Shown one piece after another: positions 15,000-45,417 of a stretch of DNA of 64,000 nt. The DNA lies in assembly GCA_016199085.1 (NCBI GenBank), contig JACQHJ010000003.1:38676-102675 (forward strand), read 5' to 3'. The DNA is from Candidatus Levyibacteriota bacterium (GTDB taxonomy: Bacteria; Patescibacteriota; Microgenomatia; Levybacterales; UBA12049). The position numbers and the translations under genes are program-made. Every line of letters starts with the position of its first letter. Position 1 is the stretch's first letter. The notes below the pieces were generated by a model. The model saw only the letters and a list, made by a program, of their open reading frames with translations. It was not told the DNA's origin and ran no database searches.

Positions 15000-15627
15000 C
15001 TCCGCAAGCAGCTAGAAACGGGTATTCATGTTTATATCGAAGATCGAGTTGGACATCAAAGATCTTTTGAGCAAAGGTCTTGGGATTTAAAACGCTTTGA
15101 TAAGTTGCGACTCCGGCCATCCTTCTGTCATTAAACGGAGGAAGTCCGTTTTGAAGCGTATCGGGTGACCAGATCGTGTCACTATCAACGAGCGCAACGA
15201 TTTCTGATTTTGCCCTTGCTATTCCATCAGCCAAGGCTTGTCTTTTGCCAGGAACTTTTGTAACAATCAAAACTCCCCTTTTAAAGGATTTCTTAAACTT
15301 TTCAAAAATTTGGATACAGGTTTTATCTGTATAATCAATTACCGCAATTATCTCCGAAGGCTTATTATTCCTCCAGGACTCTAAAGCTTTTGTAAATACT
15401 TTTGGATCTTCATTGTAGACCGGAGTCACTATTGAGACTTCTGCCTCATATGGCTTTGTTCTAGGTTTATAATGAAGACCTATTATTTCTTTCATCATCC
15501 AGACAGACCATCTCCAAATCCCTATTACCCCTAAAGGAACAAGAAATGAATATCTGTCCAGATACTGCTCTGACCAAAAGGCAATGTCTGATAAGAATAA
15601 TTGAAAATTAATAATAAGTGCTTCCAT
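14935..15627 (-). CDS. N-terminal portion of the same GT2 glycosyltransferase (DxD motif VDSDT), separated from the downstream part by a frameshift in an A5/T5 homopolymer at about 14965-14969
   Basis: TPVYNED...VDSDT...ACGDALVCLSGRTAFY is a typical GT2 A-domain. The two ORFs overlap by 65 nt in different frames. Confidence 0.75.
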   Translation of the reverse strand: MEALIINFQLFLSDIAFWSEQYLDRYSFLVPLGVIGIWRWSVWMMKEIIGLHYKPRTKPYEAEVSIVTPVYNEDPKVFTKALESWRNNKPSEIIAVIDYTDKTCIQIFEKFKKSFKRGVLIVTKVPGKRQALADGIARAKSEIVALVDSDTIWSPDTLQNGLPPFNDRRMAGVATYQSVLNPKTFAQKIFDVQLDLRYKHEYPFLAACGDALVCLSGRTAFYKRNYYPNA

Positions 15628-28846: not shown

Positions 28847-30004
28847 ATGTCGAGAGAAATTAAAGAACTATCGGGTGTGAATAATAGGCCTGATATTTTG
28901 TTTGCACATAGAGATCTTGCCACAATTGATAGGGGCGGTATTTGTGTTCTTTTTAAATCATTATCTGCAGGCTTAGCGTCAAAAGGTTATAAAGTTCATT
29001 TACTAAGTACAAGAGATATATCTTTGGAGGGAGTATCAGTTCATAGGTTACCTGACATCGAAGATCCAAGAAAATATTCCCAGGTTGTCACTGAAGCAGT
29101 TGAAGATATTGATCCTTTAATAGCTGAGTGTTCAACTTGGAGGTATGAATTACTAGACTATTCAAACAGGCATGGTAGAAGATCTAGGTTAGTAGTAAGA
29201 GCTGACCCAAGTGCAGAGACATTATTTCAAAATGCTGAACATCATTCAGAAGGTGAAAGAGTTCTTTGTGCAAATGCGGATCTTATTTTAGCAGTAAGTG
29301 ATTTTGCTAAACGCGACATACAAACAAGATATGGTGTAAGTGACGACAAGATTCATGTGGTTTATAACGGAATTCCAGTAGTGGAAACTCCTACTCAAAA
29401 TTCAACTATAACATCAGGAGAAATTTTACATCCTGAATTAAATGATGCACAAAGAATACAAAGCTTAAGACTCCAAGATGTTTTAAAACCACAAAGGATT
29501 AATATTATTTGGATAGGAAAGCCAACAAGCATGAAGGGTTTCGATTTTTTAGAAGCTTTGGTTGCAAACGCTACGGATGAATTTAATTTTGTTGTTAACT
29601 TAGGTTATTCTCCCAACGAGATTATGTGGAAAGATGAAAATTATAGAAAATGTACATTTATTAGAGGTTTGAGCAAAAGCGACCAAGCAAAATTGATTAG
29701 TGGATCCGATGTGCTTTTGTCAACTTCTCGATTTGAAGGATTTGGTATTGTGGTTGCAGAAGCACTCCAGTTTGGAGTTCCTGCAGTGATAAACCTAGGG
29801 TGTGAAGTATTTAATGAATTTAAAGATATAAATGGAGTAAGTTTAGTAGATGTACTTAATCTGGAAAAAGTATACTCGACGCTAAGAGCAAGTAAACTTT
29901 TAAAAACTAGGTCATCCCTGCTTCCAGATTTTTTCACTCAAAATCAAATGGTTAATAAAAGCCTGGAATATTATCAAGAACTCTTAGGGTCTAACAAATC
30001 ATAA
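28847..30004 (+). CDS. Glycosyltransferase family 1/4 (GT-B)
   Basis: C-terminal SRFEGFGIVVAEALQFGVPAV (the EX7E motif). Confidence 0.8.
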   Translation: MSREIKELSGVNNRPDILFAHRDLATIDRGGICVLFKSLSAGLASKGYKVHLLSTRDISLEGVSVHRLPDIEDPRKYSQVVTEAVEDIDPLIAECSTWRYELLDYSNRHGRRSRLVVRADPSAETLFQNAEHHSEGERVLCANADLILAVSDFAKRDIQTRYGVSDDKIHVVYNGIPVVETPTQNSTITSGEILHPELNDAQRIQSLRLQDVLKPQRINIIWIGKPTSMKGFDFLEALVANATDEFNFVVNLGYSPNEIMWKDENYRKCTFIRGLSKSDQAKLISGSDVLLSTSRFEGFGIVVAEALQFGVPAVINLGCEVFNEFKDINGVSLVDVLNLEKVYSTLRASKLLKTRSSLLPDFFTQNQMVNKSLEYYQELLGSNKS

Positions 30005-30027
30005 GCTTATAGTTTATGATATAATAT

Positions 30028-32817
30028 GTGCTCATGAGCGCTATTGAAACACAAAGTGGGCAACATGGAATTGATTATTCTCATTATCCACATTTACATG
30101 TAGAAGATTCTCCAAGAAAAGTAATGGAGATTAAATCGGTCATGCCTGCAAACTTTAGAGCAAGAGGATTAATGGATATAGGTTGCGATGCAGGAGTAAT
30201 AACAAAATCTGTTGGACAACTAATAGGGGCTGAAAGGGTTGACGCCGTAGAACCGTCAGAGGACGCCATTTCCTATGCTAGGGATAATTTACAAATATTT
30301 CCATATGGTCAAGTGCACCATATGGAATTTACAAAATTTAATCCAAGCAATAAGCCAGACCTTACTATGCTCATAGATGTGTTAGAGCATTTAGATAATC
30401 CAGCTGAAGCACTTAAAAAAGCAGCTGCTCTTACAAGATTTTCAATTATTAGAACTCCACTTGAGGGGAGCATGGCCGTACAGATTCACCAAAGATTATT
30501 CGGAGAAGATATACAAGCTTTAATGGAGCAAAGATATGGGCATATTCATCACTATACAAAGCAAGGATTAAAAGACTTAATTGAAGATAACGGATTTGAT
30601 ATTGTAAGAGAATCTATTACAAGAATTCCTCAAGGGGCAACAATTTTAGATAGAAGAATAAGTAAAATATTAGAATCGACAGTTTGGAGGTTGTTAAGAA
30701 GTAAATATCCTGACTTATGGGGAGGGTTTTATGTTGCGTTTGCAAAAAGTAGAGAAAGACAAGTTTTAGAAGATGATGTATATCAAAAAATACAAGGTGC
30801 AATAAATCAAGTTTTAGGAGAGTCAAACGTAGTTTCTGTTATTGTATTTGGATCAACAACGGCTGATAGAGACAAAACTCACTCAGATTATGATTTCACT
30901 GTAATTGCTCGCGATTTAAATAGAGACATTAATCAGAGAGAGCAAGCTTCACCTACGATAAAAAAAGTTCTTCAAGATGAGGGAATAAAACAACTATGTG
31001 CGTTCAATATTTACTCTCCTGAAGAATTTGCCTCAGCTGCAAGAAAGGGATCTTGGTTGGTTGAGACTATGAAGACAAACAATAGGATTGTATATGATCC
31101 TGAAGGATTTATGGCTATGGCTTTAGGTGTTACAGCTCCAAACGTTTCTCAAACAGGAGAATTTTCATGGAATGGAGTATCCCACGAGTCAGAGACTCAT
31201 GTACAAGAGGTAATTCAAAGATATAATCGGTTATCACATATAATCTCTCCTATTGACCAAAAAATGGCTAACTACTATAGAAGAGAGGCAATAAGAGGTC
31301 AATTAATATTGAGACTATTTGAGCACGGTGAATATGATACTAGAGGGTCAATTTTTTCACTTGCAAAGAAATTAAGGTATAAGTATGGAGCGCAGCTAGA
31401 TCTACAAAACTTACAGGTTGAAGATTTTTATCAAGAGATTGAGGGTAAGAAAAGAATATTAGATTATGATAGTTCAAATCTTCATTTAAGAATTGCAGAT
31501 GAATTAAATGCTCAAGGATTACATTTAGATGCTCTTGCCCACACTTACCATGCATTAAAAGCAGTTTATTTAAGGTCATTACATAAAAGCGGAAGGTATA
31601 TCGTTGAAGGAGAAATAACTCAATTATTTGTTAAAGAATTTGCTCATATTTTACCTAAAGAAGTAGTTGACTTAATTTTTGCAAATTCATTCAAAGCAGA
31701 ACAAATACTAGGAAGGTCAGGATTTACAACTTTCGACTTAGATAAAGAAGGCTCACCGCTATATGAAGATCAAGTTAACCAAGGGAACAATTACGAGACA
31801 ATTCAAAATAATCTAAGATCAATTATTAATAGTTTGGGCGCAAAAGAAGAAATCTTAAAAAGCAGCACTTCTCCTAAAATTTCCATAGTAATTGCAACAT
31901 ATAATAGGCCTGATAAGATCATTAACTGCATAACAGCTTTAAATACTTTATTAATTCCCGATGATCAAGTAGAGTTAATCGTTGTTAACGATGGATCTAC
32001 TGCCGAATACGATGAGGCATCAATTATTAACTCAAGTAAATTTCCTGTTAAATACGTTGCAAAAGAACACTCAGGAATATGTGGAACAAAAAATGAAGGA
32101 ATTCATCAAAGCCAAGGCGATTATGTAGCGTTTTTAGATGATGACATGGTTACCTCTCCATTCTGGTTAATCAATTTAGTGGCTGGTTTTAAAAACGAAA
32201 GAATTGCAGGAGTAGGATCAACAAACCTAACATATCCTGATAATAACCCAATCTCTGAATATGCTGATTATAGGGAATTAGCTAGGAGAGCATTCAAAGA
32301 CGAATCAGGTGAAATATTAAATGTTTTAACAGGAAGCGCCTGTATTAGAAGAGACGTTTTGCTTCAAGTTGGAGGGTTCAACATGAGACAGTCAGAGCTT
32401 GGTGTAGGATTTGGTGGAGACGATGTTGACTTAACATGGAGAATTAGAAATGCCGGATATTCATTAAATCATGTTAATGAAGCAGTGTGCTTCCATAATC
32501 ATAGGGCAGATCTTGGGTCACTAATTAAGCAGCATGTTGGGTACGGTGAAGGAACAATGTTTCATTGTCTTGATACACAAAGAGATCCTGAATCATTGGG
32601 TATTCCGAGTCCTGACTACATCTCAGTAGCCAAAGACTTATTGGCATATACCTATCTTGAAGTGCCCAAAAGAATGATTAGATCATATAAAGACGGATTA
32701 GGCTTAATAAGATCACTTCAGTATCCTTTATTAGACTTATTAAGAAGGGGAAGTTATGATGTAGGTATACTAAAAGCAAAAAGATTTAAAACAGCCTTAG
32801 ACAAATTTAATAAATAA
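30028..32817 (+). CDS. Multidomain fusion: class I SAM-dependent methyltransferase, then a Pol-beta-type nucleotidyltransferase domain, then a helical domain, then a family-2 glycosyltransferase
   Basis: DIGCDAGVIT (methyltransferase motif I), VIVFGSTTADRDKTHSDYDFTVIA (GS...DxD nucleotidyltransferase motif), and a C-terminal ISIVIATYNRPD...VVNDGS...FLDDD GT2 A-domain. Confidence 0.7.
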   Translation: MLMSAIETQSGQHGIDYSHYPHLHVEDSPRKVMEIKSVMPANFRARGLMDIGCDAGVITKSVGQLIGAERVDAVEPSEDAISYARDNLQIFPYGQVHHMEFTKFNPSNKPDLTMLIDVLEHLDNPAEALKKAAALTRFSIIRTPLEGSMAVQIHQRLFGEDIQALMEQRYGHIHHYTKQGLKDLIEDNGFDIVRESITRIPQGATILDRRISKILESTVWRLLRSKYPDLWGGFYVAFAKSRERQVLEDDVYQKIQGAINQVLGESNVVSVIVFGSTTADRDKTHSDYDFTVIARDLNRDINQREQASPTIKKVLQDEGIKQLCAFNIYSPEEFASAARKGSWLVETMKTNNRIVYDPEGFMAMALGVTAPNVSQTGEFSWNGVSHESETHVQEVIQRYNRLSHIISPIDQKMANYYRREAIRGQLILRLFEHGEYDTRGSIFSLAKKLRYKYGAQLDLQNLQVEDFYQEIEGKKRILDYDSSNLHLRIADELNAQGLHLDALAHTYHALKAVYLRSLHKSGRYIVEGEITQLFVKEFAHILPKEVVDLIFANSFKAEQILGRSGFTTFDLDKEGSPLYEDQVNQGNNYETIQNNLRSIINSLGAKEEILKSSTSPKISIVIATYNRPDKIINCITALNTLLIPDDQVELIVVNDGSTAEYDEASIINSSKFPVKYVAKEHSGICGTKNEGIHQSQGDYVAFLDDDMVTSPFWLINLVAGFKNERIAGVGSTNLTYPDNNPISEYADYRELARRAFKDESGEILNVLTGSACIRRDVLLQVGGFNMRQSELGVGFGGDDVDLTWRIRNAGYSLNHVNEAVCFHNHRADLGSLIKQHVGYGEGTMFHCLDTQRDPESLGIPSPDYISVAKDLLAYTYLEVPKRMIRSYKDGLGLIRSLQYPLLDLLRRGSYDVGILKAKRFKTALDKFNK

Positions 32818-32832
32818 AGATACAATTAACAA

Positions 32833-33393
32833 ATGATTATTACTTCATATTTTGTTGGAATTTTACTTGATGATATATTTATTGATTTGTATAATGAAAT
32901 AGGTCAATATTTATCAGACAATAAAATTAAACATTTAATTACTCTTCAAAATAAATCTAGTCTACATATTACACTTTATTATTTTAAGAAAGATATTGAT
33001 AAAGAAACTATAAGCAGTATTCTACTTGATATAAAAACAATTAAGATTCCTCTTATTAAAATTGATGAGGTTAAATATTTTAAGAATAATAATAAATATT
33101 TGTTATGTTACTTAAATTGCGATAAGCAGAAAATTTTTGAAAAAATAAATTCTTATTTTGCGCAAAAATACAAAAATGATCAAGTATTAGATAATCAATA
33201 CCAATATATTCCTCATATTTCATTTTTTAAGATAAACGATCAAATTAATTTTTTAAGACATAAAGAATCAATCGAAAAAATTATATACAAACATATTAAA
33301 TTAATAGATAATAAAAGAGTATTAGACTCAGTTAGGCTATTTAAGGTTAATTCAAAAACAGACCCAGAAACTCAAATCCCCATGTATACTTGA
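32833..33393 (+). CDS. 2H phosphoesterase superfamily (LigT-like) protein
   Basis: Two H-x-T/S motifs, SLHITLYYF and PHISFFK, spaced as in the 2',5' RNA ligase family. The gene is very AT-rich. Confidence 0.45.
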   Translation: MIITSYFVGILLDDIFIDLYNEIGQYLSDNKIKHLITLQNKSSLHITLYYFKKDIDKETISSILLDIKTIKIPLIKIDEVKYFKNNNKYLLCYLNCDKQKIFEKINSYFAQKYKNDQVLDNQYQYIPHISFFKINDQINFLRHKESIEKIIYKHIKLIDNKRVLDSVRLFKVNSKTDPETQIPMYT

Positions 33394-33435
33394 AATCTAT
33401 TGTTGTATTTGCTATACTATAGGTTAAATTTTGGT

Positions 33436-34257
33436 ATGAATGTTAAAATTAACAATATAATAGCGTCAAATAAAAAGCCTTTTATTTTAATTGCAGGGCC
33501 CGATTCGATTGAGTCATTAGACCATGCAATGCTTATGGCTAAGAGCATTAATAAAATTGCAAAACAATTTCAAATTCCCTATGTATTTAAAGCTTCATAC
33601 GATAAGGCAAATAGAACTTCTGTTACTTCTTTCCGTGGGGTCGGTATGGAAGAAGGAGTAAAAATTCTAACTAAAATTCAAGACACTCTTAAAATTCCGG
33701 TTACGACTGATGTCCATACCGTAGAACAGGCAGAATATGTTGGTAAATTTATAAATTTAATACAAGTGCCAGCGCTTTTAAGCAGGCAGACGGACTTATT
33801 AGTTGCAGCAGGAAAAACAAAAAAGGCAGTGAATATTAAAAAGGGACAATTTATTGCACCTCAAAATGCAAATAACTTAATAGGAAAAGTTACATCGACG
33901 GGAAATACAAACGTATTAATAACAGAAAGAGGAACAACCTTTGGTTACAATGATGTAGTAACTGATATGCGTGGATTAGAAATAATGAAAAGGTTCGGTT
34001 ACCCAGTAATATTTGATGCTTCCCATACAGTTCAATTTCCATCAAATCTAGGAAATAAATCAGGTGGAGATAGAAGTTTAATTCCAGCTTTAGCAAAAGC
34101 AGCAATTGCTGTTGGAATTGCGGGCATATTCATGGAGATACATAATAATCCTTCCAAGGCACCTGTAGATGGATTAAGTTCTTTAGATTTGAAGGATCTT
34201 AAAGGATTATTGAGAACATTAAAGTCTATAGATAAAATAGTTAAGAATTATGAATAA
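33436..34257 (+). CDS. kdsA: 3-deoxy-8-phosphooctulonate (Kdo-8-P) synthase
   Basis: KASYDKANRTSVTSFRGVGMEEGVKIL matches KdsA FKSSFDKANRSS..SYRGPGLEEGMKIF. The length is about 275 aa. I placed the start at the MNVKINN ATG at 33436. Confidence 0.85.
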   Translation: MNVKINNIIASNKKPFILIAGPDSIESLDHAMLMAKSINKIAKQFQIPYVFKASYDKANRTSVTSFRGVGMEEGVKILTKIQDTLKIPVTTDVHTVEQAEYVGKFINLIQVPALLSRQTDLLVAAGKTKKAVNIKKGQFIAPQNANNLIGKVTSTGNTNVLITERGTTFGYNDVVTDMRGLEIMKRFGYPVIFDASHTVQFPSNLGNKSGGDRSLIPALAKAAIAVGIAGIFMEIHNNPSKAPVDGLSSLDLKDLKGLLRTLKSIDKIVKNYE

Positions 34258-34864
34258 AGATTTAATAATAAAAGCTGGAAAAGCAGTGCTAAAAAATGCT
34301 GCAAGAAATATATTAATTACAGAAAAGAAACTAGACAATAATTTCGTTGAAGCAGTAAATATTCTAAAACGAAGAAAGGGTAAGATAATTGCTGTTGGTA
34401 TTGGGAAATCAGGGATAATAGCTAATAAATTTTCTTCAACTATATCTAGTACAGGAAACCTTTGCATATTCGTTCACCCAACCGAAGCATTTCACGGAGA
34501 CTTTGGAAAAATTAATGAAAAAGATGTCTTAGTAATTTTTTGCCATAGTGGTGAAACAAAAGAAATTATCGATTTCTTAATGTTTTGTAAACAAAAAAAT
34601 AAAAATATTAAGATTATATCTATTACCTCAAAATTTGATTCAACTATTTCACTTATGTCAAATGTAACTTTAACTACTTGGGTAGAAGAAGAGCATGCAG
34701 ATCCAAGATTTAAGTTGATTCCGACAACAAGTGCTTCTGTAACATTGGCCTTATCAGATGCTTTAATAATATCTCTGCAGACAATTAACAAATTTCAAGC
34801 ACATAGATTCTATAAAAATCACCCTGGAGGACATATTGGTGAAATATCAAGAAACTATAATTAA
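34250..34864 (+). CDS. SIS-domain arabinose-5-phosphate isomerase (KdsD/KpsF-type, single SIS domain without CBS)
   Basis: GKIIAVGIGKSGIIANKF...FVHPTEAFHGDFGKI...FCHSGETKEI closely follows the KdsD SIS motifs (GKSG, FVHPGEAAHGDLG, SNSGES). Confidence 0.75.
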   Translation: MNKDLIIKAGKAVLKNAARNILITEKKLDNNFVEAVNILKRRKGKIIAVGIGKSGIIANKFSSTISSTGNLCIFVHPTEAFHGDFGKINEKDVLVIFCHSGETKEIIDFLMFCKQKNKNIKIISITSKFDSTISLMSNVTLTTWVEEEHADPRFKLIPTTSASVTLALSDALIISLQTINKFQAHRFYKNHPGGHIGEISRNYN

Positions 34865-35525
34865 TAACTCCCTACCTAAATCATTCATTTTTGACATGGA
34901 TGGTGTATTAATTGATAGTGAGTCTGCCTGGGTTCCTTTCCAAGATGCATTCTCAACCTCATTATTTGGCCTAGAAATATATAAAAAAGTTGGTGCCTCA
35001 GTAGGAATAACAATAAACGACATTTATAAAAAGGCAAGTAGATTTGGTTTTTCAATGAATATGGATCAATATTATTCTAGATATGATCAGCAAGCAATTG
35101 AGGTGTATAAAAATGCTAAGCCGACAAAGGAAATAAAGAAATTGGTAACTTTCTTAAAACATAGGGGATTTAAAATAGGGCTTGTTTCATCCTCAAGAAA
35201 AACTTGGATTAAATTTGTACTAAATAAACTCGATTTAGAAGGGCTATTTGATGACATTTTATCTATAAATGATGAGAAAATTGAATCAAAACCAAAACCA
35301 ACTGCATATAGCAAAATAATTAACAAACTTGGTGTAAAAGAATCTCAGGCTATTGTTCTAGAAGATACAAATAATGGAATTAATTCTGCTAAAAAAGCTG
35401 GTGCAATTGTAATAGGTTTTCAAGAAAATATTCCTAATAATTACATACAGAAAAACGCTGATTACTATGCTATCAATGTAAATGATGTTATAAATGTTGT
35501 AAATAGATTAATAGATGGCAGGTGA
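34836..35525 (+). CDS. HAD-superfamily hydrolase (subfamily IA), candidate sugar-phosphate phosphatase
   Basis: Motif I FIFDMDGVLIDSE plus downstream HAD motifs. It overlaps the stop codon of the kdsD-like gene. Confidence 0.75.
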   Translation: MVKYQETIINNSLPKSFIFDMDGVLIDSESAWVPFQDAFSTSLFGLEIYKKVGASVGITINDIYKKASRFGFSMNMDQYYSRYDQQAIEVYKNAKPTKEIKKLVTFLKHRGFKIGLVSSSRKTWIKFVLNKLDLEGLFDDILSINDEKIESKPKPTAYSKIINKLGVKESQAIVLEDTNNGINSAKKAGAIVIGFQENIPNNYIQKNADYYAINVNDVINVVNRLIDGR

Positions 35526-36339
35526 AAGAAAAGATTTACCAACTCCAAAGCTTGCAACTGCAAGAGATGCATATGATTCATATGCTAAATACTATGACGA
35601 ATCAACTAATTGGTTTGATCAAGATCTTCCTTTTTATTCCAGATTACTGCAAACAACTGTACCGCCGTTTATTGAAGTAGGCTGTGGAACTGGACGAGTA
35701 CTCAATTACTTATTGACATCATCTGGAGCTAATAAACCAAAGGGGGAATCTCCTGCCTACATAACTGGTGTTGATATATCAGAGGAGATGCTTGAAGTTT
35801 GTAGAAGAAAAGCTAAAAAATTTATTGATAAAAAAGTATTAATATTAATAAATCATGATCTCGCTGAAGAACCGTTGCCAGATGTAAGTTTTAATGCTGC
35901 GCTTGTGACATTTTACGTTATGAACTATATACCGGAGGAATTACAAGCTAGATTTTTAGAAAATATTTATTCAATGTTAAATCCTAGAGGAATTATAGCA
36001 ATAAATTTATTCTATCCTAGAATACAAAGAGAACCATCTATCGCAAATGCATGGAAAAGCCATTCTATACCCACGCGCGAAGGACCAGTTTCTTTCGATG
36101 AAAGACAAAGATTAATAGAAGACGTAGAAGAAAGAGAGCTAATATTTAATCCAACCATGTTTGGAGGTGAAAGAATTTTCTTAAGGAGATTTTATATTTC
36201 TCCAACCAAGGGGAAAACGTTGCTTGAGCAAGCTGGTTTTACTGACGTAGAGCACTTAAAAGGTTTTAATAGGCACAACCTTGGAAATTTCGAGGAAGAT
36301 CCCAATTCTTATAGCTTTACATTAATTGCTAGAAAATAA
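35515..36339 (+). CDS. Class I SAM-dependent methyltransferase
   Basis: Motif I EVGCGTGRV. Confidence 0.7.
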   Translation: MAGERKDLPTPKLATARDAYDSYAKYYDESTNWFDQDLPFYSRLLQTTVPPFIEVGCGTGRVLNYLLTSSGANKPKGESPAYITGVDISEEMLEVCRRKAKKFIDKKVLILINHDLAEEPLPDVSFNAALVTFYVMNYIPEELQARFLENIYSMLNPRGIIAINLFYPRIQREPSIANAWKSHSIPTREGPVSFDERQRLIEDVEERELIFNPTMFGGERIFLRRFYISPTKGKTLLEQAGFTDVEHLKGFNRHNLGNFEEDPNSYSFTLIARK

Positions 36340-36465: not shown

Positions 36466-36500
36466 AGTTGTGCTGAGCATACCGCTCTCGACCCATTACA
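36466..36500. repeat. Intergenic repeat copy A (consensus about tTGtGCTGAGCATaCCGgTCTaGAACC), one of three
   Basis: Seen directly by aligning 36468-36500, 37168-37200 and 37706-37740. Confidence 0.5.
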
Positions 36501-36552
36501 TCATTATAGCGGTCGGGCTGAAGCTGAATAAGGCAATATCAGAATATTTAAT

Positions 36553-37165: not shown

Positions 37166-37200
37166 CACGTTTTTGTGCTGAGCATACCGGTCTAGAACCG
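37166..37200. repeat. Intergenic repeat copy B
   Basis: The sequence tgtgctgagcataccggtctagaacc is seen directly. It lies 30-60 bp upstream of the maf start. Confidence 0.5.
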
Positions 37201-37214
37201 TTTTGTCGTTATAA

Positions 37215-37664
37215 CTACTTGTCTAGTTTGAATATGCTTATATCTTCTTCTGATAAATTATCCTTCTCCCAAAATTTGAGCCTGTGCCAAATAGTTTGTC
37301 CTTTCATATCTTTTTGAATTGCGACTACTAGCTTTTTATAGAAATCGTCACTATCGCCGCCTGCTGGTTTTTTGCTAGAATGCGCAGCGATAAATTTATT
37401 AGCTAAGCGAATAACAGTTGCCGAAGCATAAAGGGGAGCATGAGTATAAAGTTCTTCCATGAAATTCTTTTGTCTTTCCTTATCAATCCATCCCTCAAAA
37501 AAACCAATTATATTTTCGAGAAATTTTTTATATTGATCTTCTTTCCTTTCTCTTGCGTAAAGCTCCCGCTCTCTGTTTCTTTCGAATCGATCATTAAGAT
37601 ATGCGCCAATAAGGCCACCCAATCCTAACGATCCGACTAGGGCAATAAGTATTTCAGAATTCAT
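37215..37664 (-). CDS. Hypothetical protein with N-terminal TM
   Basis: ORF only. Confidence 0.4.
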   Translation of the reverse strand: MNSEILIALVGSLGLGGLIGAYLNDRFERNRERELYARERKEDQYKKFLENIIGFFEGWIDKERQKNFMEELYTHAPLYASATVIRLANKFIAAHSSKKPAGGDSDDFYKKLVVAIQKDMKGQTIWHRLKFWEKDNLSEEDISIFKLDK

Positions 37665-37705
37665 TTATTATTAAAACTGCAGACACGCTCATGATTGTGT
37701 TTGTT

Positions 37706-37765
37706 TTTGCTGAGCATCTCGGTTTAGAACCACCTTATCTTTATTGCTATTCTAGATTGCCTACT
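37706..37765. repeat. Intergenic repeat copy C, followed by an att-like TATTCTAG...CCTACT segment
   Basis: The sequence tttgctgagcatctcggtttagaacc...gctattctagattgcctact is seen directly. Confidence 0.5.
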
Positions 37766-38321
37766 CTTGTTTAACGCCTATTGTGCGTTGAGACTCTAAT
37801 TTATTGGCCGCTTCTAAAAAAGATGCTCTATCATTCAAGTCTATATCTTTACTCATTTCCTTAAAACTTTCTAATTGTTCTTTTGTTTGAGCTATTAAGA
37901 TGTCTTTATGTTTTAGATAAAACCACAGACGAAATGCAGTCATGAAGCCTGTAATCTCAATGGTTAACTCTTGATACATCCTAATATCGTCCCAGATAAC
38001 AAATTCGCTTGATGCTGGATTAAATCTCAGTAATTTATCAGGATCACTATTTGCATGTTTAAAAAAATTATAGGGTTCATTAAGTTTTTTTAGCACAAAG
38101 GCCTGTTTCTCTGGTTTTATGTATCCATCCATCTGGGATTTAAAAGATTTTATGCCTGAGGCTTTTCCTATTCCAGATAGTATTTCTTCGGCAGCGCAAG
38201 CAGAAAGGTGAATTATTACAAAATCTCCATAATTAAAAAACAATTTAATAGCATGCTCTAATTCTCTTTTTGCAACATCTAGCTTTGAGACGTTTATGAT
38301 TTTTTTAGTTTCTTCGTCCAT
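37761..38321 (-). CDS. Hypothetical protein
   Basis: ORF only. Confidence 0.4.
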   Translation of the reverse strand: MDEETKKIINVSKLDVAKRELEHAIKLFFNYGDFVIIHLSACAAEEILSGIGKASGIKSFKSQMDGYIKPEKQAFVLKKLNEPYNFFKHANSDPDKLLRFNPASSEFVIWDDIRMYQELTIEITGFMTAFRLWFYLKHKDILIAQTKEQLESFKEMSKDIDLNDRASFLEAANKLESQRTIGVKQE

Positions 38322-38333
38322 ATACTATTCAAT

Positions 38334-38422
38334 CTTGCTGGCTACTTACGAAAAATGTCGAACTTCGTTTCTTAAATAGTCGCTTCGCTCCTACTATTTT
38401 AGAGCTCGGCCTCGCCTCGCTC
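38334..38422. repeat. Inverted repeat X (89 bp), a perfect reverse complement of 43622..43710; begins with the 7-bp core CTTGCTG
   Basis: Direct base-by-base comparison of the two segments. Confidence 0.9.
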
Positions 38423-38439
38423 TTTTGTATTTTTTGCCA

Positions 38440-38900
38440 GAACGAACAAACCTTTTCGCGCGATTTTTATTATACCAAATAACCCGCCCGCCCGACGGAA
38501 AGGAGCGGCGACCCCGCCTTTATGCGAGAGGACTTCCTAGGGGAAGTCTCGCCAGTATCTTTACTTTTTTAAAACTCTTTACAGTCTCTTACTCGCCCCG
38601 CTTCGGCGGGGCTAAATTTCTTCTAACTTAAAACCGCCTGCAGTCAGCGGGGTACTTCCGCTTTTCGCCCCCGCCGATGTTATTCTACCCCCTATTTAGT
38701 TTACGATCTTTGGGATAAACCATATTGGCTCGCCCCGCAAGGTTTCAAGTAAAAGAAGTTTCCGCGGGGCTCGCTTTGGTCGGACTGCCTATACCAAGTC
38801 GGTGGTAAATAAAGTTTTCCTAACGGCAGTTCTCCTTTTAAGGGCGTAATCCTCACGGTGCGGGGGCGGCGGACGCTGCCAATCATTTTTGTCTGAAAAA
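38440..38900 (+). ncRNA. Candidate structured non-coding RNA of unknown class. It is a GC-rich island of about 460 nt in AT-rich DNA with multiple perfect hairpins, including a UUCG tetraloop (GCCCCGC-UUCG-GCGGGGC)
   Basis: There is no plausible ORF; the six-frame ORFs are R-rich artefacts. Hairpins include gacttcc-tagg-ggaagtc, gccccgc-ttcg-gcggggc, and gccccgc...gcggggc. Confidence 0.3.
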
Positions 38901-38988
38901 TTTGACGATAACAGACATTAATAGCTTACAAACTTACGTGAGATAACAGCCTCAAATATACTACATTCAGCCTATTTAATAGTATATC

Positions 38989-39017
38989 TTGACAATAATA
39001 GTAAGATATGTTATAAT
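38989..39017 (+). promoter_or_regulatory. Perfect sigma70-type promoter TTGACA-17 bp-TATAAT, 7 nt upstream of the ATG of the first operon gene (a near-leaderless transcript)
   Basis: TTGACA at 38989-38994, a 17-nt spacer, TATAAT at 39012-39017, and an ATG at 39025. Confidence 0.6.
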
Positions 39018-39024
39018 ACAAGCC

Positions 39025-39243
39025 ATGAAAGAAGATAGAGCACAAAGATTTAAGAGAATCGCCACATATAGAACAAACGAGGTCTTGGATAAGCTCAGGC
39101 TCTTAGGGAATCTCTCCAACAAAGCTAATTATGAATATACAGAGGACGAGGTAAACAAAATATTTTCAGCTATAGAGATTCAGTTAAGAATTGCTAAGGC
39201 TAAATTTTCTTCTTCAAAGAAAAAGAAAGAGTTTTCGCTATGA
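39025..39243 (+). CDS. Small hypothetical protein (72 aa), first gene of the four-gene operon
   Basis: The ORF from the ATG at 39025 overlaps the next gene by 4 nt (ATGA). Confidence 0.45.
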   Translation: MKEDRAQRFKRIATYRTNEVLDKLRLLGNLSNKANYEYTEDEVNKIFSAIEIQLRIAKAKFSSSKKKKEFSL

Positions 39244-39845
39244 GTAATGAAGAATTAACAAATGTTGATATCGTCTTGTACTCGCTTTATTTGCTTGGTG
39301 GTAGTAGAAGAAAGATTTTTACCGAAGATATCGCCAAAAAGTGTTTTGAATTAGCACAAGATCGTTTTTCTTGGAGAAGATATCCAGAATACCCAGATAT
39401 TGAGCCTGCAAGAAAATCTTTAATGGAAGCAAGAAACCAGAAAGACTTAATAAGCGGCAGGGCAGGAGAAGTTAAGGGTACAAAACCATCTGATGGATGG
39501 ATTTTCTCTCCTGAAGGTGTGTTCTGGATAGAAAAAAATAAATCACGTATTGAAAAAGCGCTAGGCAAAAAACAAAAACCTATCAAGAGAACAGAACTTT
39601 CCAAAAAAATTGCCGAGCTTGAATCTTCAAGCGCATTCTTAGAATTTTTGAAAGAAAAGACGTGCAACAATATCAAAGCTTATGAATTCACTGATTTTCT
39701 AAACGTTAGCCTTGATACCCCATCATCAGTAATCAAGAGTAGAATTCAAACTGTTAAGGCTCTTGCAGCATCAGAAAAAAGAGAAAAACTTCTTACATTT
39801 ATTGCGCTTTGCGAAAAAAATTTTTCCAAATTAATTAATAATTAA
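39240..39845 (+). CDS. Hypothetical protein (201 aa), second gene of the operon
   Basis: Translationally coupled to both flanking genes. Confidence 0.5.
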   Translation: MSNEELTNVDIVLYSLYLLGGSRRKIFTEDIAKKCFELAQDRFSWRRYPEYPDIEPARKSLMEARNQKDLISGRAGEVKGTKPSDGWIFSPEGVFWIEKNKSRIEKALGKKQKPIKRTELSKKIAELESSSAFLEFLKEKTCNNIKAYEFTDFLNVSLDTPSSVIKSRIQTVKALAASEKREKLLTFIALCEKNFSKLINN

Positions 39846-39846
39846 C

Positions 39847-42096
39847 ATGAATCCAAATTCTAATATAATTTTTGGCCAACCACAAAAATTTGATATATCT
39901 GATAGATACTTTCTTCAAACAGCTGAGAGCGCAATGAAAGGAGATGTAATAAGGGGGTTAGTTGAATTAATTACCAATGCTGATGACAGTTACGAAGAAG
40001 TTGAGTCAAAAGGATTAACTAGTAGCGGGAAAATACTCATTGAAATAATAAGAAAAAAGCAAGGCAAAAATAGTTTAATTAAGGTCGTTGATAAAGCTGA
40101 AGGAATGAAGCTGGAAGAAATGGTTATTAAGTTAAAAAGGGTTGGGGGGATGACAAGCCATTTTATTGAAAGCAAAGGATTAAAAACGAGAGGATTAATG
40201 GGTAGAGGTAGCAAAGAATGTGTGGTTTTTGGTCCTTTAACTTTCAAATCAATAAAAGACAATATTTATTCTGAAGTTGTTTTAAAAAAACCTGCAATCT
40301 TTATTCCGCAAATCGAAAGACCTGTAACAGAAGTCGACAGAGTAAAGCTAGATATTAAAGGGAATGGAACAGTTGTGGAATTAAAAGTTGAACCACATTT
40401 TCAAATTCCGAGCCATAACTCTTTAGTAGAGAATTTACCAAAATATTACAGTCTGAGGGATATTACATCCAATCCCAAAAGAATAATTGAGTTAAGTGAC
40501 GGTAAAAGATCTGATAGGCTAGTTTACAATCCTAAAAAAGGCACTGTTGTACTAGATGAAGTAATTAATGTTATGGAATATCCTGGCGCGCAGGCTCATC
40601 TCATTCTAATAAAAACGCCTGAATCAATTGAGGTTGAAAGTAATTCTCCTTTTTGGGAAGGTGGAATATTAATTCAAAGCGGGCATGCAGTTCACGGCGT
40701 AACGGGATTCACTAGAGATATCGAGAATAATCCTTATTTTGTACATTATTTTGGAAGATTGGTTTGTACTTATATTGATATTCTTGCAATAGAATATGAA
40801 GAATATGAAAAAAATAATCAAGCGCATACCGCGTTAAACCCATCGAGAATTATCGAACCATTAAGAAAGGAAGGATTATTCTCTAACCATCCCTTTACTA
40901 AGATTTTGTATAGAGAAGCTTCACGGAGAATAAAAAATCTTTTGAAAAAAGACGAGGAACTCTCTACCTCAATGATTAAAGAAATAGAAAATAAAAAAAC
41001 AAAAGATAGACTCAAAAGGCTGGCTGACGCAGTTAGCAGGTTTATTAAAGAAAGGACTGAAGATTTGGAAATAGAAGATGATAACTATCTTTCTGGTTCT
41101 GACATTCCCGTTGGTGGGATGATTGTGATACCTGGTGGACTTAGAGTTCCAATTGGTGAAGAAAAAAGGTTTTATGTTTATGTTAAACCAAAAATACAAC
41201 AGGATAGATTTGTTACGCTTTTTACTCAGTCCAGCGCAATAGCCCTAAGCTCTAAAAAGGAAGAGCTAATTGAAAGGAATGATGGAACTTTTTACGCCCA
41301 GTTCTCTGTAAAAGGAGTTGATTATGTCAATGACGCTATAGTTAAGGTAAATTGGTCGAATATAGAAAATAATGTTCCTGTTTCAGTAATTAAAAAGGAA
41401 GAAGATCATCCATTTATTACTGACTTCTCTTTTGAAAAAAATAAATATAATTTACGTGAAGGTAAACAGAAGGATATTTATTTATTGGCTAAATGGCCTG
41501 ATTTTGTCCACGGATGGGCGGAATGTACTATTGAGACAAACAAAAATGAATTTTTAACAGTTTTGGGTAATAAAACTAGATTAAAATATAAACGATTTAA
41601 CGATGGGACACAGATGGCCATAGGAAAAGTCAAAATATATGGGGTAAAAACGGGAGGCCCAACCATAATTAAAACGTCTATAAATAATAAAACAGTGCAA
41701 ACAGAAATAAATGTTCTTCCAAAATTGGAGTTAGGACATAATATCGAGATCAAATTGGTTGATGAAGAAGCGGGAGCACAGAGAGCAGTTTGGGATGGGG
41801 ACATTTTAAAAATAAATACGAGACATAAAACTATTCATAGATATTCCGGTCCACCACCTGACTATTTAGGACAAGATTCAATTCATTTTCATTTGTTGTT
41901 GGCAGAATTGATAGCAGATAATGTAGCTAGGCGAGTTTTAGAATTAAATGCTGAAAAAAATATACATAAATATCAAGATATGGATATATATGGTTTTTAT
42001 GATATACACAGAAAGTATGTAAATGATTTCTTAGAAGTTGCCCATAACATTCAAATTCCCGATAATGAACTTGTAAATATTGTCCTTAATTCTTAG
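39847..42096 (+). CDS. Large protein (749 aa) with a putative N-terminal GHKL-type (Bergerat-fold, MORC/Hsp90/MutL-like) ATPase domain, then a coiled coil and a beta-rich C-terminal region
   Basis: N-box-like ELITNADDS, G1-box-like VVDKAEGMKLEEM (a degenerate DxGxG), and G2-like TRGLMGRGSK. I recognised nothing in the remainder. Confidence 0.5.
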   Translation: MNPNSNIIFGQPQKFDISDRYFLQTAESAMKGDVIRGLVELITNADDSYEEVESKGLTSSGKILIEIIRKKQGKNSLIKVVDKAEGMKLEEMVIKLKRVGGMTSHFIESKGLKTRGLMGRGSKECVVFGPLTFKSIKDNIYSEVVLKKPAIFIPQIERPVTEVDRVKLDIKGNGTVVELKVEPHFQIPSHNSLVENLPKYYSLRDITSNPKRIIELSDGKRSDRLVYNPKKGTVVLDEVINVMEYPGAQAHLILIKTPESIEVESNSPFWEGGILIQSGHAVHGVTGFTRDIENNPYFVHYFGRLVCTYIDILAIEYEEYEKNNQAHTALNPSRIIEPLRKEGLFSNHPFTKILYREASRRIKNLLKKDEELSTSMIKEIENKKTKDRLKRLADAVSRFIKERTEDLEIEDDNYLSGSDIPVGGMIVIPGGLRVPIGEEKRFYVYVKPKIQQDRFVTLFTQSSAIALSSKKEELIERNDGTFYAQFSVKGVDYVNDAIVKVNWSNIENNVPVSVIKKEEDHPFITDFSFEKNKYNLREGKQKDIYLLAKWPDFVHGWAECTIETNKNEFLTVLGNKTRLKYKRFNDGTQMAIGKVKIYGVKTGGPTIIKTSINNKTVQTEINVLPKLELGHNIEIKLVDEEAGAQRAVWDGDILKINTRHKTIHRYSGPPPDYLGQDSIHFHLLLAELIADNVARRVLELNAEKNIHKYQDMDIYGFYDIHRKYVNDFLEVAHNIQIPDNELVNIVLNS

Positions 42097-42138
42097 CTGT
42101 GAAGAGAGAGTAACGAGGATATAATCCAGTTAGAATTT

Positions 42139-43425
42139 ATGCCAAAGAAATCATACAGAATAGGTGAATTACCTCAAGAGCTTAAAACAAAAAGTGTTTT
42201 TTATTACGTTAACGAAAAGCAAGGTTTAAAAGTAAAATCAAAAGAAGTATTCAAAAATGGAGAAAAAGTTGTTCACTATCCATTTAAAAGGGATGGCACT
42301 CCTAAATATAGAAATATAAGAAAAATTACATATGAAAATATGCCAGAGAATTTACCAAGAGGATTTTATAAAGAATGGACTAAAGGTTATGGTTTTACTC
42401 GTGTATATAATCCCTTAATTTATCGACTTGATGATGCATTAAAAATTCAAGAAGTTATAGTTAGCAAAAACATAATCACAAAATTTGAAAATGGAAAACT
42501 ATATTTGAACTCTGATAAATTAGACTCATCTTATCCCAAAATAGATTTGCTTTTAAAAAAACACAATGTTGAAATTGATAATTTAGCTAATGATATTTTG
42601 TCGAAGTATTTCCCTCAAACTTTCAAGAATAAATCTCAGAAATACATAAAAGGAAGCTTAGCGCAATTTATAGATAAAAATGTAACTCAAATCTCTGATT
42701 TATCAGAAGCAGACACGCAATCCTTATTTGATCTTGCCTCTAGAATTTCAAAAGATGATTTTCTAGAAAGTAAAACCAGTGTATTAAAGACTAAAGAAAA
42801 AATTGAAGAAGTTTATATTGAAGAAGTAATTGAAGAATTTGAAAAATTATTATCTAGAAAGAATTTGACTAAAAATTTAGAAGAAAGATGGCAGAAGTTT
42901 TTTACGCAATATAATTGGATCTTTTCTCAATTATTTTCATTTCCAGTTTTAATTTTTAAAGATAAGGCTTATGTGGGAGGGAAAGGTATAGAAAATGCAA
43001 ATGGGAAAATCTCTGATTTTATCTACAAAAATAAATTAACAAACAATATTGCTTTTATAGAAATTAAGACTCATAAAACTCCAATACTTATTGATAAACC
43101 ATATAGAGGAAATGATGTTTATTCTGTAAGTAAAGACATGAGCGGAGCTGTTAATCAGGTATTAGATCAAAGAGATAATTTTCAGAAAGAATTTTATTCT
43201 CTTAAATCTAAAAGTAAAAATAAGAATTTTGAATCTTACAATTCTAAGTGTATCATTATCACTGGTAGCTTAAGTAAGCTCTCGGAAGAAGAAAAGAAAT
43301 CCTTTGATTTAATGAGAAGCAATAGTAGAGATGTAGACATAATCACATTTGACGAAGTGTTAGAGAAAATTAAAGGACTAGAATCTTTACTTTTTGGTTC
43401 TAAGCAAAAATCTACTGCAAATTAA
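42139..43425 (+). CDS. Protein (428 aa) with a C-terminal DUF4263/Shedu-like PD-(D/E)xK nuclease domain
   Basis: DFIYKNK...IAFIEIKTHK (D...ExK), QVLDQ...Y, and C-terminal IIITGS...DIITFDEV resembling the DUF4263 C-terminus. Confidence 0.45.
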   Translation: MPKKSYRIGELPQELKTKSVFYYVNEKQGLKVKSKEVFKNGEKVVHYPFKRDGTPKYRNIRKITYENMPENLPRGFYKEWTKGYGFTRVYNPLIYRLDDALKIQEVIVSKNIITKFENGKLYLNSDKLDSSYPKIDLLLKKHNVEIDNLANDILSKYFPQTFKNKSQKYIKGSLAQFIDKNVTQISDLSEADTQSLFDLASRISKDDFLESKTSVLKTKEKIEEVYIEEVIEEFEKLLSRKNLTKNLEERWQKFFTQYNWIFSQLFSFPVLIFKDKAYVGGKGIENANGKISDFIYKNKLTNNIAFIEIKTHKTPILIDKPYRGNDVYSVSKDMSGAVNQVLDQRDNFQKEFYSLKSKSKNKNFESYNSKCIIITGSLSKLSEEEKKSFDLMRSNSRDVDIITFDEVLEKIKGLESLLFGSKQKSTAN

Positions 43426-43500
43426 TACACCTTGCGTTATTGTAAAAGTTTTGTTTTTTGCTATAGTAAAACGGTAGTCAAACTTTTCTTTTCGGTTTTT

Positions 43501-43553
43501 TAATGGCCGCATTGGACAGATCCGAAAAGGGTTTGACTACACCAGTGCGGCCA
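43501..43553. other. 13-bp-stem hairpin (aatggccgcattgg...ccagtgcggccatt) immediately downstream of the operon; candidate terminator or recombination site
   Basis: Inverted repeat with one mismatch and a 24-nt loop, seen directly. Confidence 0.3.
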
Positions 43554-43621
43554 TTTGAGTACTTTAAAATTTTTGCGTTTTTCTCCCAAAGACGATTTGG
43601 GAACGAGTCGACAGTTTTTGA

Positions 43622-43710
43622 GCGAGGCGAGGCCGAGCTCTAAAATAGTAGGAGCGAAGCGACTATTTAAGAAACGAAGTTCGACATTTTTCGTAAGTAG
43701 CCAGCAAGCT
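43622..43710. repeat. Inverted repeat X' (reverse complement of 38334..38422)
   Basis: Direct comparison. Confidence 0.9.
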
Positions 43711-43809
43711 AGAATAATTAAACCTACGAGGACCTAAACCCTCCGCCGGAAAACTTTCAGAAAGAACGGCAAATCCGGCCTTTTTGAAATCAGCAGACAG
43801 TCGTCGAAA
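43704..43809. repeat. Inverted repeat Y' (reverse complement of 45245..45349; 93 bp perfect plus an extension with 2 mismatches). It abuts and overlaps X' at the shared core CAGCAAG
   Basis: Direct comparison. Confidence 0.9.
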
Positions 43810-43849
43810 GAAAAAGAAGAGAAAAACGCAAAAATTTAAGAATAAGAAC

Positions 43850-45406: not shown

Positions 45407-45417
45407 CAGATCCGACA
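45347..45417 (-). tRNA. tRNA-Gln (anticodon CUG), 71 nt, CCA not encoded
   Basis: Manual cloverleaf: acceptor UGUCGGA/UCCGACA (U1:A72), D-stem UGCU/GGCA with loop AAUGGUA, anticodon stem CCAGA/UCUGG with loop CUCUGAA, T-stem CUUGG/CCAAG with loop UUCGAAU, and discriminator G. Confidence 0.8.

Follow-up and report, generated by a model that had tools for sequence, protein, structure and literature searches.

Kdo (3-deoxy-D-manno-octulosonate) is a signature sugar of lipopolysaccharide (LPS) and of some capsules, and its conversion to CMP-Kdo by KdsB is treated as the sole route of activation. In the canonical diderm pathway, Kdo is made, activated and transferred by KdsD, KdsA, KdsC, KdsB and a transferase, either WaaA or KpsS/KpsC. 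Bacteria of the candidate phyla radiation (CPR) are believed to have no LPS, and very little is known about the chemistry of their envelopes. In the Gram-positive Bacillus coahuilensis m2-6, a Kdo island consisting of kdsB, kpsC, kdsD, kdsC and kdsA has been described (PMC4744853), and a CBS-less arabinose-5-phosphate (A5P) isomerase from Clostridium tetani is mentioned in PMC11301363, which cites Cech et al. (2017, J Bacteriol 199:e00246-17). Here we report on a kdsA-containing operon in 64,000 nucleotides of a Candidatus Levyibacteriota genome (contig JACQHJ010000003.1 of assembly GCA_016199085.1, positions 38,676 to 102,675; this whole stretch is referred to as the window). We found that KdsA is accompanied by a rare fusion of a nucleotidyltransferase (NTase) with a glycosyltransferase and by a phosphodiesterase, a combination that suggests an undescribed use of Kdo in a bacterium without any sign of an outer membrane.

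The initial annotation of the window had recognised three contiguous, overlapping Kdo precursor genes lying among glycosyltransferase genes in a CPR-like genome, and our data agree with it on each of these points. Open reading frames (ORFs) for KdsA, a SIS-domain isomerase and a HAD-family phosphatase were found on the + strand (Table 1), with overlaps of 8 nt between kdsA and the SIS gene and 29 nt between the SIS and HAD genes. The trio forms the distal part of a seven-gene co-directional operon (28847-36339), in which a GT4-family glycosyltransferase, the 929 aa fusion protein, a 186 aa 2H phosphoesterase, KdsA, the SIS protein, the HAD protein and an S-adenosylmethionine (SAM)-dependent methyltransferase are encoded in this order with intergenic spacing of -29 to +42 nt; the GT4 gene and the GT2-containing fusion gene are thus the glycosyltransferase neighbours upstream of the trio. 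KdsA is identical (100% identity, 100% coverage) to a Candidatus Levybacteria protein at NCBI (P0001; lineage Patescibacteria group, Microgenomates group, Ca. Levyibacteriota), which begins at the same ATG.

The kdsA gene had been identified from its motifs with high confidence, and comparison with the paralogous 3-deoxy-D-arabino-heptulosonate 7-phosphate (DAHP) synthases confirmed that it encodes a true Kdo-8-phosphate (Kdo8P) synthase. Specifically, the equivalog-level NCBIfam models NF003543 and TIGR01362 gave 376 bits (cutoff 242) and 359 bits (cutoff 314), respectively, whereas the best DAHP synthase model gave only 135 bits (cutoff 335). Against PDB sequences, Kdo8P synthases were the top 40 of the 45 matches listed (E 3e-80 to ~1e-57), and the next five were DAHP synthases, at E 1e-22 or weaker. 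Residues K57, N59, R60, K136, R165, H197, Q200, E234 and D245 are each shared by no fewer than 120 of 121 homologs, and the residues for catalysis and for binding of phosphoenolpyruvate (PEP) and A5P, including a KANRS-type motif and the Lys, Arg, His, Gln, Glu and Asp residues, are all present and align to solved Kdo8P synthase structures. The predicted formation of Kdo8P from A5P and PEP by KdsA is strongly supported by the sequence.

To see which genes stay with kdsA, the neighbourhoods of KdsA and fusion-protein relatives were scored with one tblastn panel, using flanks of up to 10 kb; a scan of species-representative genomes with the single KdsA gave nine loci, mainly useful as diderm controls. 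The order fusion, 2H, (methyltransferase), kdsA, (SIS), (HAD), in which the genes in parentheses are variable, was found in the window and in L017/18/21, L010/11, L020/28/29, L022, L023-25 and L030, and fusion-2H-kdsA was the order in every locus with available DNA downstream of the fusion gene, the 2H gene always lying between the other two. Full-length orthologs of the fusion protein (47-62% identity) are encoded directly upstream of 2H-kdsA in L017, L010, L020, L022, L023, L025 and others. Different arrangements were also seen; for example, in L019 the NTase and GT2 are encoded by two different genes of a divergent operon next to kdsA-SIS, and in L031, L035 and L036 the genes kdsA-SIS-HAD are convergent with an operon encoding a SerC-like aminotransferase and an NTase homolog that either stands alone or is fused to GT2. 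Thus, a protein with the NTase and its HEPN-like domain is encoded beside KdsA in every locus with enough flanking DNA, representing about 11 related low-GC lineages. The other members of the trio are less constant: SIS is missing in L010, L022, L023 and L025; HAD orthologs follow kdsA or SIS in L010, L020, L023-25, L031, L035 and L036, but HAD is absent in L019, and in L017 all that remains of it is 52 aa joined to a nitroreductase-like sequence. Since SIS and HAD have been lost in some loci, the trio is not a conserved unit, and it is KdsA, the NTase-containing protein and a phosphoesterase that stay together.

Two further features were noted in these loci. A SerC-like class-V aminotransferase (best PDB match 3FFR, E 1e-74), which is not found in the window, is linked to the module in L010, L011, L020, L031, L035 and L036, which represent five lineages; as Kdo8P is a phosphorylated 2-keto acid, the presence of this enzyme is a hint that an amino derivative is made there. 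In addition, the module in L020 (1-20007) is flanked by conjugation-type genes encoding TrbC/type IV secretion pilin, a TraG/VirD4-like ATPase and Replic_Relax, which suggests that it can travel on a mobile element.

As the initial annotation had noted for KdsB, neither KdsB (PF02348) nor KdsC nor WaaA was detected in the window, either by tblastn with E. coli KdsB, KdsC and WaaA and a second KdsB or by Pfam scans of ~65 ORFs, and none of the three was present in the available flanks of the 13 NTase-type loci. Known Kdo transferases were likewise not found in the window (no WaaA by tblastn and no Glycos_transf_N or Capsule_synth by Pfam; GT99 was not specifically searched). All positive controls (L001, L003, L005, L012 and L034) gave a KdsB match, and in the diderm controls L003 (Endomicrobium) and L005 (Elusimicrobia) KdsB and KdsC are both encoded beside KdsA, indicating that the method is able to detect them. 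The suggestion of a Kdo-containing surface glycan or capsule, also made in the initial annotation, found no backing: the conserved module contains no CMP-Kdo synthetase, no WaaA or KpsC/S (the latter detectable by Pfam scans), and no flippase, polymerase or exporter.

KdsB was found with KdsA in a second type of Kdo cluster (L012, 6693-12323; L034, 7596-12274; L033; L001; L002), which also has a KdsA with Asp at the first metal-ligand position. Loci of this type (L001, L012, L034 and, in part, L033) contain KdsB, a histidine phosphatase, a CBS-bearing KdsD, KdsA and a ~480 aa protein and lack the NTase; the ~480 aa protein has no Pfam match and might be a Kdo transferase. L012, L001 and L002 share another conserved protein, of 282 aa, and Wzx flippases are encoded near the L012 and L034 clusters. 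As L033 carries the NCBI label 'Patescibacteria group bacterium', canonical CMP-Kdo clusters may also occur in CPR bacteria. However, the GC content of the KdsB-type loci is high (0.52-0.68), and the relatives of the L012 KdsB (at least 56% identity), where named, are mostly from Chlamydiae and Verrucomicrobia, with one Marsarchaeota label among the 120 listed, making the taxonomy of these loci uncertain. No CPR name appeared among the same 120 matches, which is not conclusive.

The fusion protein consists of a class I SAM-dependent methyltransferase, a Pol-beta-type NTase followed by a HEPN-like helical domain, and a GT2 glycosyltransferase; the methyltransferase is missing from the stand-alone or shorter family members P0241, P0244 and P0248. 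In the NTase, the motif hG[GS]-x10-DxD is intact (FGS-x10-DYD), and among 18 family members F40, S42, D53 and D55 are conserved in at least 90% and K78, N93 and D123 in all. Although PF18765 and NTP_transf_2 match this region only weakly, its profile found MNT, ANT(3'') and KNTase in PDB, and AlphaFold2 with the 18-sequence alignment produced a model of the NTase-HEPN region with pLDDT 90.2 and pTM 0.90, superseding an earlier model from three sequences (pLDDT 55) that gave no significant fold match. With the new model, the top Foldseek match was the Hailong defence NTase HalB; MNT-HEPN toxin-antitoxin proteins also matched, and the relatives included ANT and LinB-type proteins, which act on small molecules. 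With the HEPN-like domain C-terminal to the NTase in the same chain, the modelled architecture is that of aminoglycoside/lincosamide O-nucleotidyltransferases. In the HEPN-like domain, E295, E324, Q325 and R329 are invariant and Q298 and D336 are conserved in at least 90%, polar residues that would suit a pocket for a polar small molecule, and the ortholog sequences have no conserved Rx4-6H RNase motif after the invariant Arg.

A word-index search with the NTase region had returned only two proteins, whereas HMMER, run exhaustively against 1.84 billion cluster representatives, later identified 39 relatives at E<=1e-3, 21 of them at E<=1e-10. The closer relatives are mostly fused to GT2, and some also carry the methyltransferase. 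Members encoded on KdsA contigs were confirmed for P0245/P0007 and P0244/P0030 and, from contigs of the same length, are implied for P0248/P0010 and P0250/P0014. To our knowledge, this NTase-HEPN-GT2 family has not been described. In the GT2 domain, the motifs DDGS and LDDDM are invariant in four orthologs, providing the DxD of GT-A enzymes, and the closest NCBIfam model is that of the MftF-type glycosyltransferase (127 bits, below cutoff).

The 2H protein alone had weak Pfam and NCBIfam matches, but a profile of six orthologs matched the 2'-5' RNA ligase/LigT structures 1VDX and 2FYH (E 8e-8) and 2D4G (E 9e-4) with the motifs aligned, and the two HxT/S motifs, SLH[ITV][TS]L and PH[IV][ST], are kept in all seven aligned orthologs, as expected of a LigT-like enzyme. 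In most loci the phosphoesterase slot is occupied by 2H; in L031 and L036, however, an AP-superfamily protein (PF01663) is encoded directly upstream of kdsA, and L019 has a weak PHP-like match. The use of three unrelated folds in one slot argues that a phosphoester-cleaving step is required, and the exchange looks like non-orthologous displacement of that step.

The SIS protein had been read as a single-SIS, KdsD-type isomerase without a CBS pair, a reading that stands. Both motifs quoted for it, GIGKSG and FVHPTEAFHGDFG, are present, and its match to the KpsF/GutQ model TIGR00393 is confined to positions 1-151 of 268 (144 bits, cutoff 203.7), indicating that the CBS pair is lacking; the protein ends straight after HPGG, with neither tandem CBS domains nor an above-cutoff full-length score. 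The best PDB matches were 3ETN (E 1e-30), 5UQI and the SIS domain of E. coli KdsD (2XHZ). The catalytic residues of E. coli KdsD, K59, H88, E111, E152 and H193, all have equivalents in the window protein, and four orthologs keep them as well. Conversion of ribulose-5-phosphate to A5P by this predicted isomerase is strongly supported by the sequence. The HAD protein matched HAD_2 (103 bits) and, among NCBIfam models, best matched HAD-IA sugar phosphatases (HxpB, beta-PGM family); motifs I-IV are intact (DMDGVLIDS, SSS, K and EDxxxG, all conserved). A tblastn search with E. coli KdsC (HAD-IIIA, YrbI family) showed no similarity to it, placing it outside the YrbI/KdsC family. Given its position next to kdsA-SIS, it remains a plausible substitute for KdsC, as was first proposed.

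Two classes of Kdo8P synthase have been described according to the first metal-ligand position, Cys in metal-dependent and Asn in metal-independent enzymes (PMC3052366). The window KdsA has neither; Asp23, in the sequence 'IAGPDSIES', aligns with the Cys of 3FS2 and the Asn of 1O60. Asp occupies this position in 107 of 121 sequences (P0001-P0120 and the window protein) and Cys in the other 14, which are found only among relatives at ~60% identity or less. As Asp-type KdsA is also encoded in complete KdsB-KdsD clusters, the residue is a variant within the family and not grounds for exclusion from it. In a neighbour-joining tree (approximate, no bootstrap), the Asp clade is nested within the Cys-type enzymes, with the window KdsA in a crown group together with other fusion-type loci. 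We know of no description of Asp-type Kdo8P synthases, which may represent a third active-site class; they are relevant to how this enzyme family changes between metal dependence and metal independence, a question that has long been studied.

The data may be best explained, although we hold this reading at slightly below even confidence, by a pathway in which KdsB is not used and the NTase-HEPN domain serves as its analogue. The CBS-less SIS isomerase would convert ribulose-5-phosphate to A5P, KdsA would condense A5P with PEP to Kdo-8-P, and the HAD-IA phosphatase would release Kdo. The NTase-HEPN domain would then nucleotidylate Kdo, Kdo-8-P or a derivative, by analogy with O-nucleotidyltransferases that add NMP to sugar hydroxyls, and the fused GT2 would pass on the unit thus activated, with a glycan, a glycolipid or a small molecule as the possible acceptor. 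Decoration of the product may fall to the methyltransferases, and the 2H enzyme, or the AP-type or PHP-like protein elsewhere, might cleave a phosphodiester or cyclic-phosphate intermediate or by-product, which is conjecture. Our data show the gene identities, the intact catalytic residues, the operon layout, the conserved co-occurrence and the NTase-HEPN fold on which this scheme builds; all substrates downstream of Kdo-8-P, the substrate of the HAD protein, and what the final product is and where it is found are inferred. The more extensive proposal, that Microgenomates-type CPR bacteria make Kdo glycoconjugates independently of KdsB, with donor activation by NTase-HEPN, GT2 as a new Kdo or Kdo-phosphate transferase, a phosphodiesterase completing the cycle and an Asp-type KdsA of a third class, is doubtful when all its parts are taken together.

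Several points weigh against this pathway. We know of no Pol-beta-fold NTase that makes glycosyl donors, and the CMP-Kdo synthetases known so far have a different fold. A kdsB gene could lie outside the window, either in the other 118 kb of the contig or in another part of the genome. The role of the HAD protein as Kdo8P phosphatase, though plausible, is assigned from gene context only, and genomes with clusters lacking SIS or HAD must supply A5P or a phosphatase from elsewhere or use Kdo-8-P directly. The conserved core has no membrane, export or lipid-carrier gene that would place the product at the surface, and the MftF-type enzyme closest to the GT2 glycosylates a small molecule.

The absence of KdsB might also be explained by a canonical pathway with dispersed genes, in which the trio makes Kdo, KdsB and a transferase are encoded elsewhere, and the fusion and 2H proteins build or decorate other parts of this glycan, or of a different one, and never act on Kdo. 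Only 64 kb of the 182 kb contig has been seen, CPR gene clusters are often fragmented, SIS and HAD are dispensable in some clusters, showing that pathway genes can sit elsewhere, and the KdsB-linked cluster of L033 (labelled Patescibacteria, and similar to those of L034 and L012) makes KdsB available to the radiation. However, KdsB is absent from the available flanks (up to 10 kb) in all ~11 fusion-type lineages, yet adjacent in the KdsB-type loci and diderm controls; no CPR bacterium is named among the 120 best KdsB relatives listed; and a very rare NTase-HEPN found almost only beside KdsA is hard to explain unless it acts on a KdsA-derived compound. We consider dispersed genes unlikely, if still the main competitor. 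We regard as less probable, though realistic, a small-molecule pathway, leading from Kdo-8-P to a soluble nucleotidylated or glycosylated sugar acid or, in the loci with the SerC-like enzyme, to 2-amino-3-deoxy-octonate through transamination of the 2-keto acid and its dephosphorylation by the HAD protein, in the manner of SerC and SerB in serine synthesis. In keeping with such a pathway, the conserved proteins are all predicted to be soluble, the core lacks a flippase, polymerase and exporter, the GT2 is nearest to a small-molecule enzyme, ANT and LinB-type relatives work on small molecules, and the aminotransferase is linked in L010, L020, L031, L035 and L036; but the window has no aminotransferase, a GT4 gene heads the operon in the window and in L017, the window is otherwise rich in surface-glycan genes, and no precedent compound is known to us.

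The resemblance of the NTase to HalB and to MNT-HEPN toxin-antitoxin proteins raises a different idea, namely that the NTase, HEPN, 2H and glycosyltransferases form an anti-phage or toxin-antitoxin module near a Shedu island. A short GT4-conflict Pfam match in the GT4 protein, and a Shedu gene and serine recombinase 6-9 kb downstream, would fit, but PADLOC found no defence-family match for GT4 or 2H and only generic methyltransferase-level or marginal NTase matches for the fusion protein, the HEPN-like domain lacks the conserved RNase motif, known defence systems are not tied so closely to three enzymes of sugar metabolism, and in other loci the module is not beside defence genes. The defence reading, rejected after the PADLOC scan, is thus very improbable. 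Least credible of all, to the point of being negligible, is that the kdsA homolog is a DAHP synthase or other paralog and the cluster unrelated to Kdo. Although PF00793 is common to Kdo8P and DAHP synthases and the canonical Cys/Asn is replaced by Asp, this was rejected on the model scores (376 and 359 bits against at most 135) and PDB ranking (E 3e-80 against 1e-22); moreover, little or no variation is seen in the A5P-binding motif KANR(S/T) or at any active-site position other than that of the Asp, complete KdsB-KdsD-KdsA clusters also contain a KdsA of this Asp-type clade, and kdsA is translationally coupled to the gene for a dedicated A5P isomerase.

Table 1. Positions in the window of the operon genes, the domains of the fusion protein and the envelope-related marker genes
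Feature	Position	Strand	Description
GT4-family glycosyltransferase	28847-30004	+	Glyco_transf_4 48 bits, Glycos_transf_1 38 bits (Pfam); first gene of the operon
Fusion protein	30028-32817	+	929 aa; SAM methyltransferase, NTase-HEPN and GT2 (Pfam/NCBIfam)
Fusion domain 1	30145-30609	+	Class I SAM-dependent methyltransferase; residues ~40-194; Methyltransf_23 55.7 bits
Fusion domain 2	30730-31857	+	Pol-beta-type NTase and HEPN-like helical domain; residues 235-610
Fusion domain 3	31873-32556	+	GT2 (GT-A); residues ~616-843; Glycos_transf_2 (PF00535) 75 bits
2H phosphoesterase	32833-33393	+	LigT-type; 186 aa; GC 0.21
kdsA	33436-34257	+	Kdo8P synthase; 273 aa from ATG; Asp23 metal-site variant; NF003543, TIGR01362
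SIS gene	34250-34864	+	204 aa; single-SIS, CBS-less A5P isomerase of KdsD/KpsF type; TIGR00393
HAD gene	34836-35525	+	229 aa, TTG start; HAD-IA phosphatase, candidate Kdo8P phosphatase, non-orthologous to KdsC
SAM-dependent methyltransferase	35515-36339	+	274 aa; Methyltransf_25/12/11; last gene of the operon
Sortase	5222-5824		Window marker (Pfam scan)
LysM	12729-14999		Window marker (Pfam scan)
DUF3048	59967-61142		Window marker (Pfam scan)
DUF4446	61139-61603		Window marker (Pfam scan)

At the ends of the operon, conservation is limited. The GT4 gene stops 23 nt before the fusion gene and has an ortholog (57% identity) at the same place in L017/L018 only; the terminal methyltransferase gene overlaps the HAD gene by 11 nt and has no ortholog in the related loci, where a different, 221 aa methyltransferase is carried. 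None of the seven operon proteins showed convincing transmembrane topology, and the fusion protein has no TM-like segments. The GC content at third codon positions (GC3) is 0.14-0.23 in the operon genes and ~0.25-0.40 in most flanking genes, which is mild evidence for a foreign or atypical origin. No terminator-like site was found on the + strand inside the operon, and a promoter scan, with 39 promoter-like sites against 43 expected, was uninformative.

The genes for sortase, LysM, DUF3048 and DUF4446, taken at the outset as signs of a monoderm-type envelope, were all located in the window, which also contains the housekeeping genes for GltX, AspRS, RecJ, CCA-adding enzyme and SecDF; no outer-membrane or LPS gene was found in the Pfam scans of its ~65 ORFs. 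Two further features lie on the - strand. At 12729-15627, a 230 aa ORF (14935-15627) matches positions 3-171 of the GT2 profile, and an overlapping 756 aa ORF (12729-14999) begins with positions 182-230 of this profile and continues with LysM and a NosD/beta-helix region. The two ORFs resemble a single GT2-LysM-beta-helix gene interrupted by a frameshift, due to sequencing error, pseudogene formation or recoding. At 9782-10351, a PF06042 (NTP_transf_6) nucleotidyltransferase, unrelated to KdsB and to the NTase-HEPN family, is encoded in a separate surface-glycan cluster, whose other products are UDP-glucose dehydrogenase, a beta-helix protein with DUF1565 and a protein of the Acyl_transf_3 family.

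Downstream of the operon, 37215-45417 is a probable integrated island. Five of its ORFs match no known family; the others are the gene for Shedu SduA (42139-43425), with a PADLOC score of 295 bits, and that for a large serine recombinase (43784-45406), which runs 61 nt into an opposite-strand tRNA-Gln(CTG) gene (45346-45417); att-like direct repeats linking the tRNA gene to the island boundary were searched for and not found. Between the operon and the island, a 41 nt element (TTGTGCTGAGCATACCG.TCT.GA.CC...) with the near-palindrome TGCTGAGCA is present in three copies of 68-100% identity (36468-36508, 37173-37213 and 37705-37745), which occupy successive intergenic gaps around a Maf gene and a 149 aa ORF.

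In the literature searched, no relevant paper on Kdo genes in CPR/Patescibacteria was found. The recurrence of a Kdo8P synthase module in many Microgenomates lineages shows Kdo or a derivative to be part of CPR biology, and the association of KdsA with a rare NTase-HEPN-GT2 protein, and never with KdsB, offers a concrete candidate for a novel way of activating sugar acids and for a novel family of transferases. If a KdsB-independent route is indeed used, a Kdo-containing molecule would be present in a bacterium without an outer membrane. Kdo analogues might provide a handle to label or detect uncultured CPR cells.

The module most likely shares its first three chemical steps with the canonical diderm CMP-Kdo pathway, but the window and the ~11 clusters lack KdsB, HAD-IIIA KdsC and a known Kdo transferase and have a CBS-less isomerase and an Asp-type KdsA, in a CPR host with monoderm-type envelope genes. 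The KdsB-linked clusters (L033; cf. L012, L034 and L001) are closer in that their KdsA belongs to the same Asp-type clade (61-62% identity) and KdsC is also lacking, with a histidine phosphatase in its place; they differ in having KdsB, a CBS-bearing KdsD, the ~480 aa protein, Wzx-type flippases and higher GC, and in lacking NTase-HEPN, 2H and the GT2 fusion. The isomerase resembles known CBS-less enzymes (B. fragilis 3ETN; 5UQI) in its single SIS domain of ~200 aa, the same catalytic residues and the E value of 1e-30, but unlike these it is translationally coupled to kdsA; the C. tetani enzyme is not known to have a Kdo context. The NTase-HEPN region shares only 10-17% identity with ANT(4')/KNTase, ANT(3'')(9)/AadA, AAD(9), LinB and MNT-HEPN pairs; its helical part is larger, with GE[IV]TQ and FKAEQxLGRSG motifs of its own, and it is fused to GT2 and a methyltransferase and linked to kdsA rather than to resistance or toxin genes. 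The Kdo island of B. coahuilensis provides a genomic precedent outside diderms, with Kdo genes in the absence of LPS, in a compositionally deviant low-GC region with glycosyltransferase neighbours; that island, however, is canonical, whereas the module described here dispenses with kdsB, kdsC and kpsC and carries the NTase-HEPN-GT2 fusion and 2H genes.

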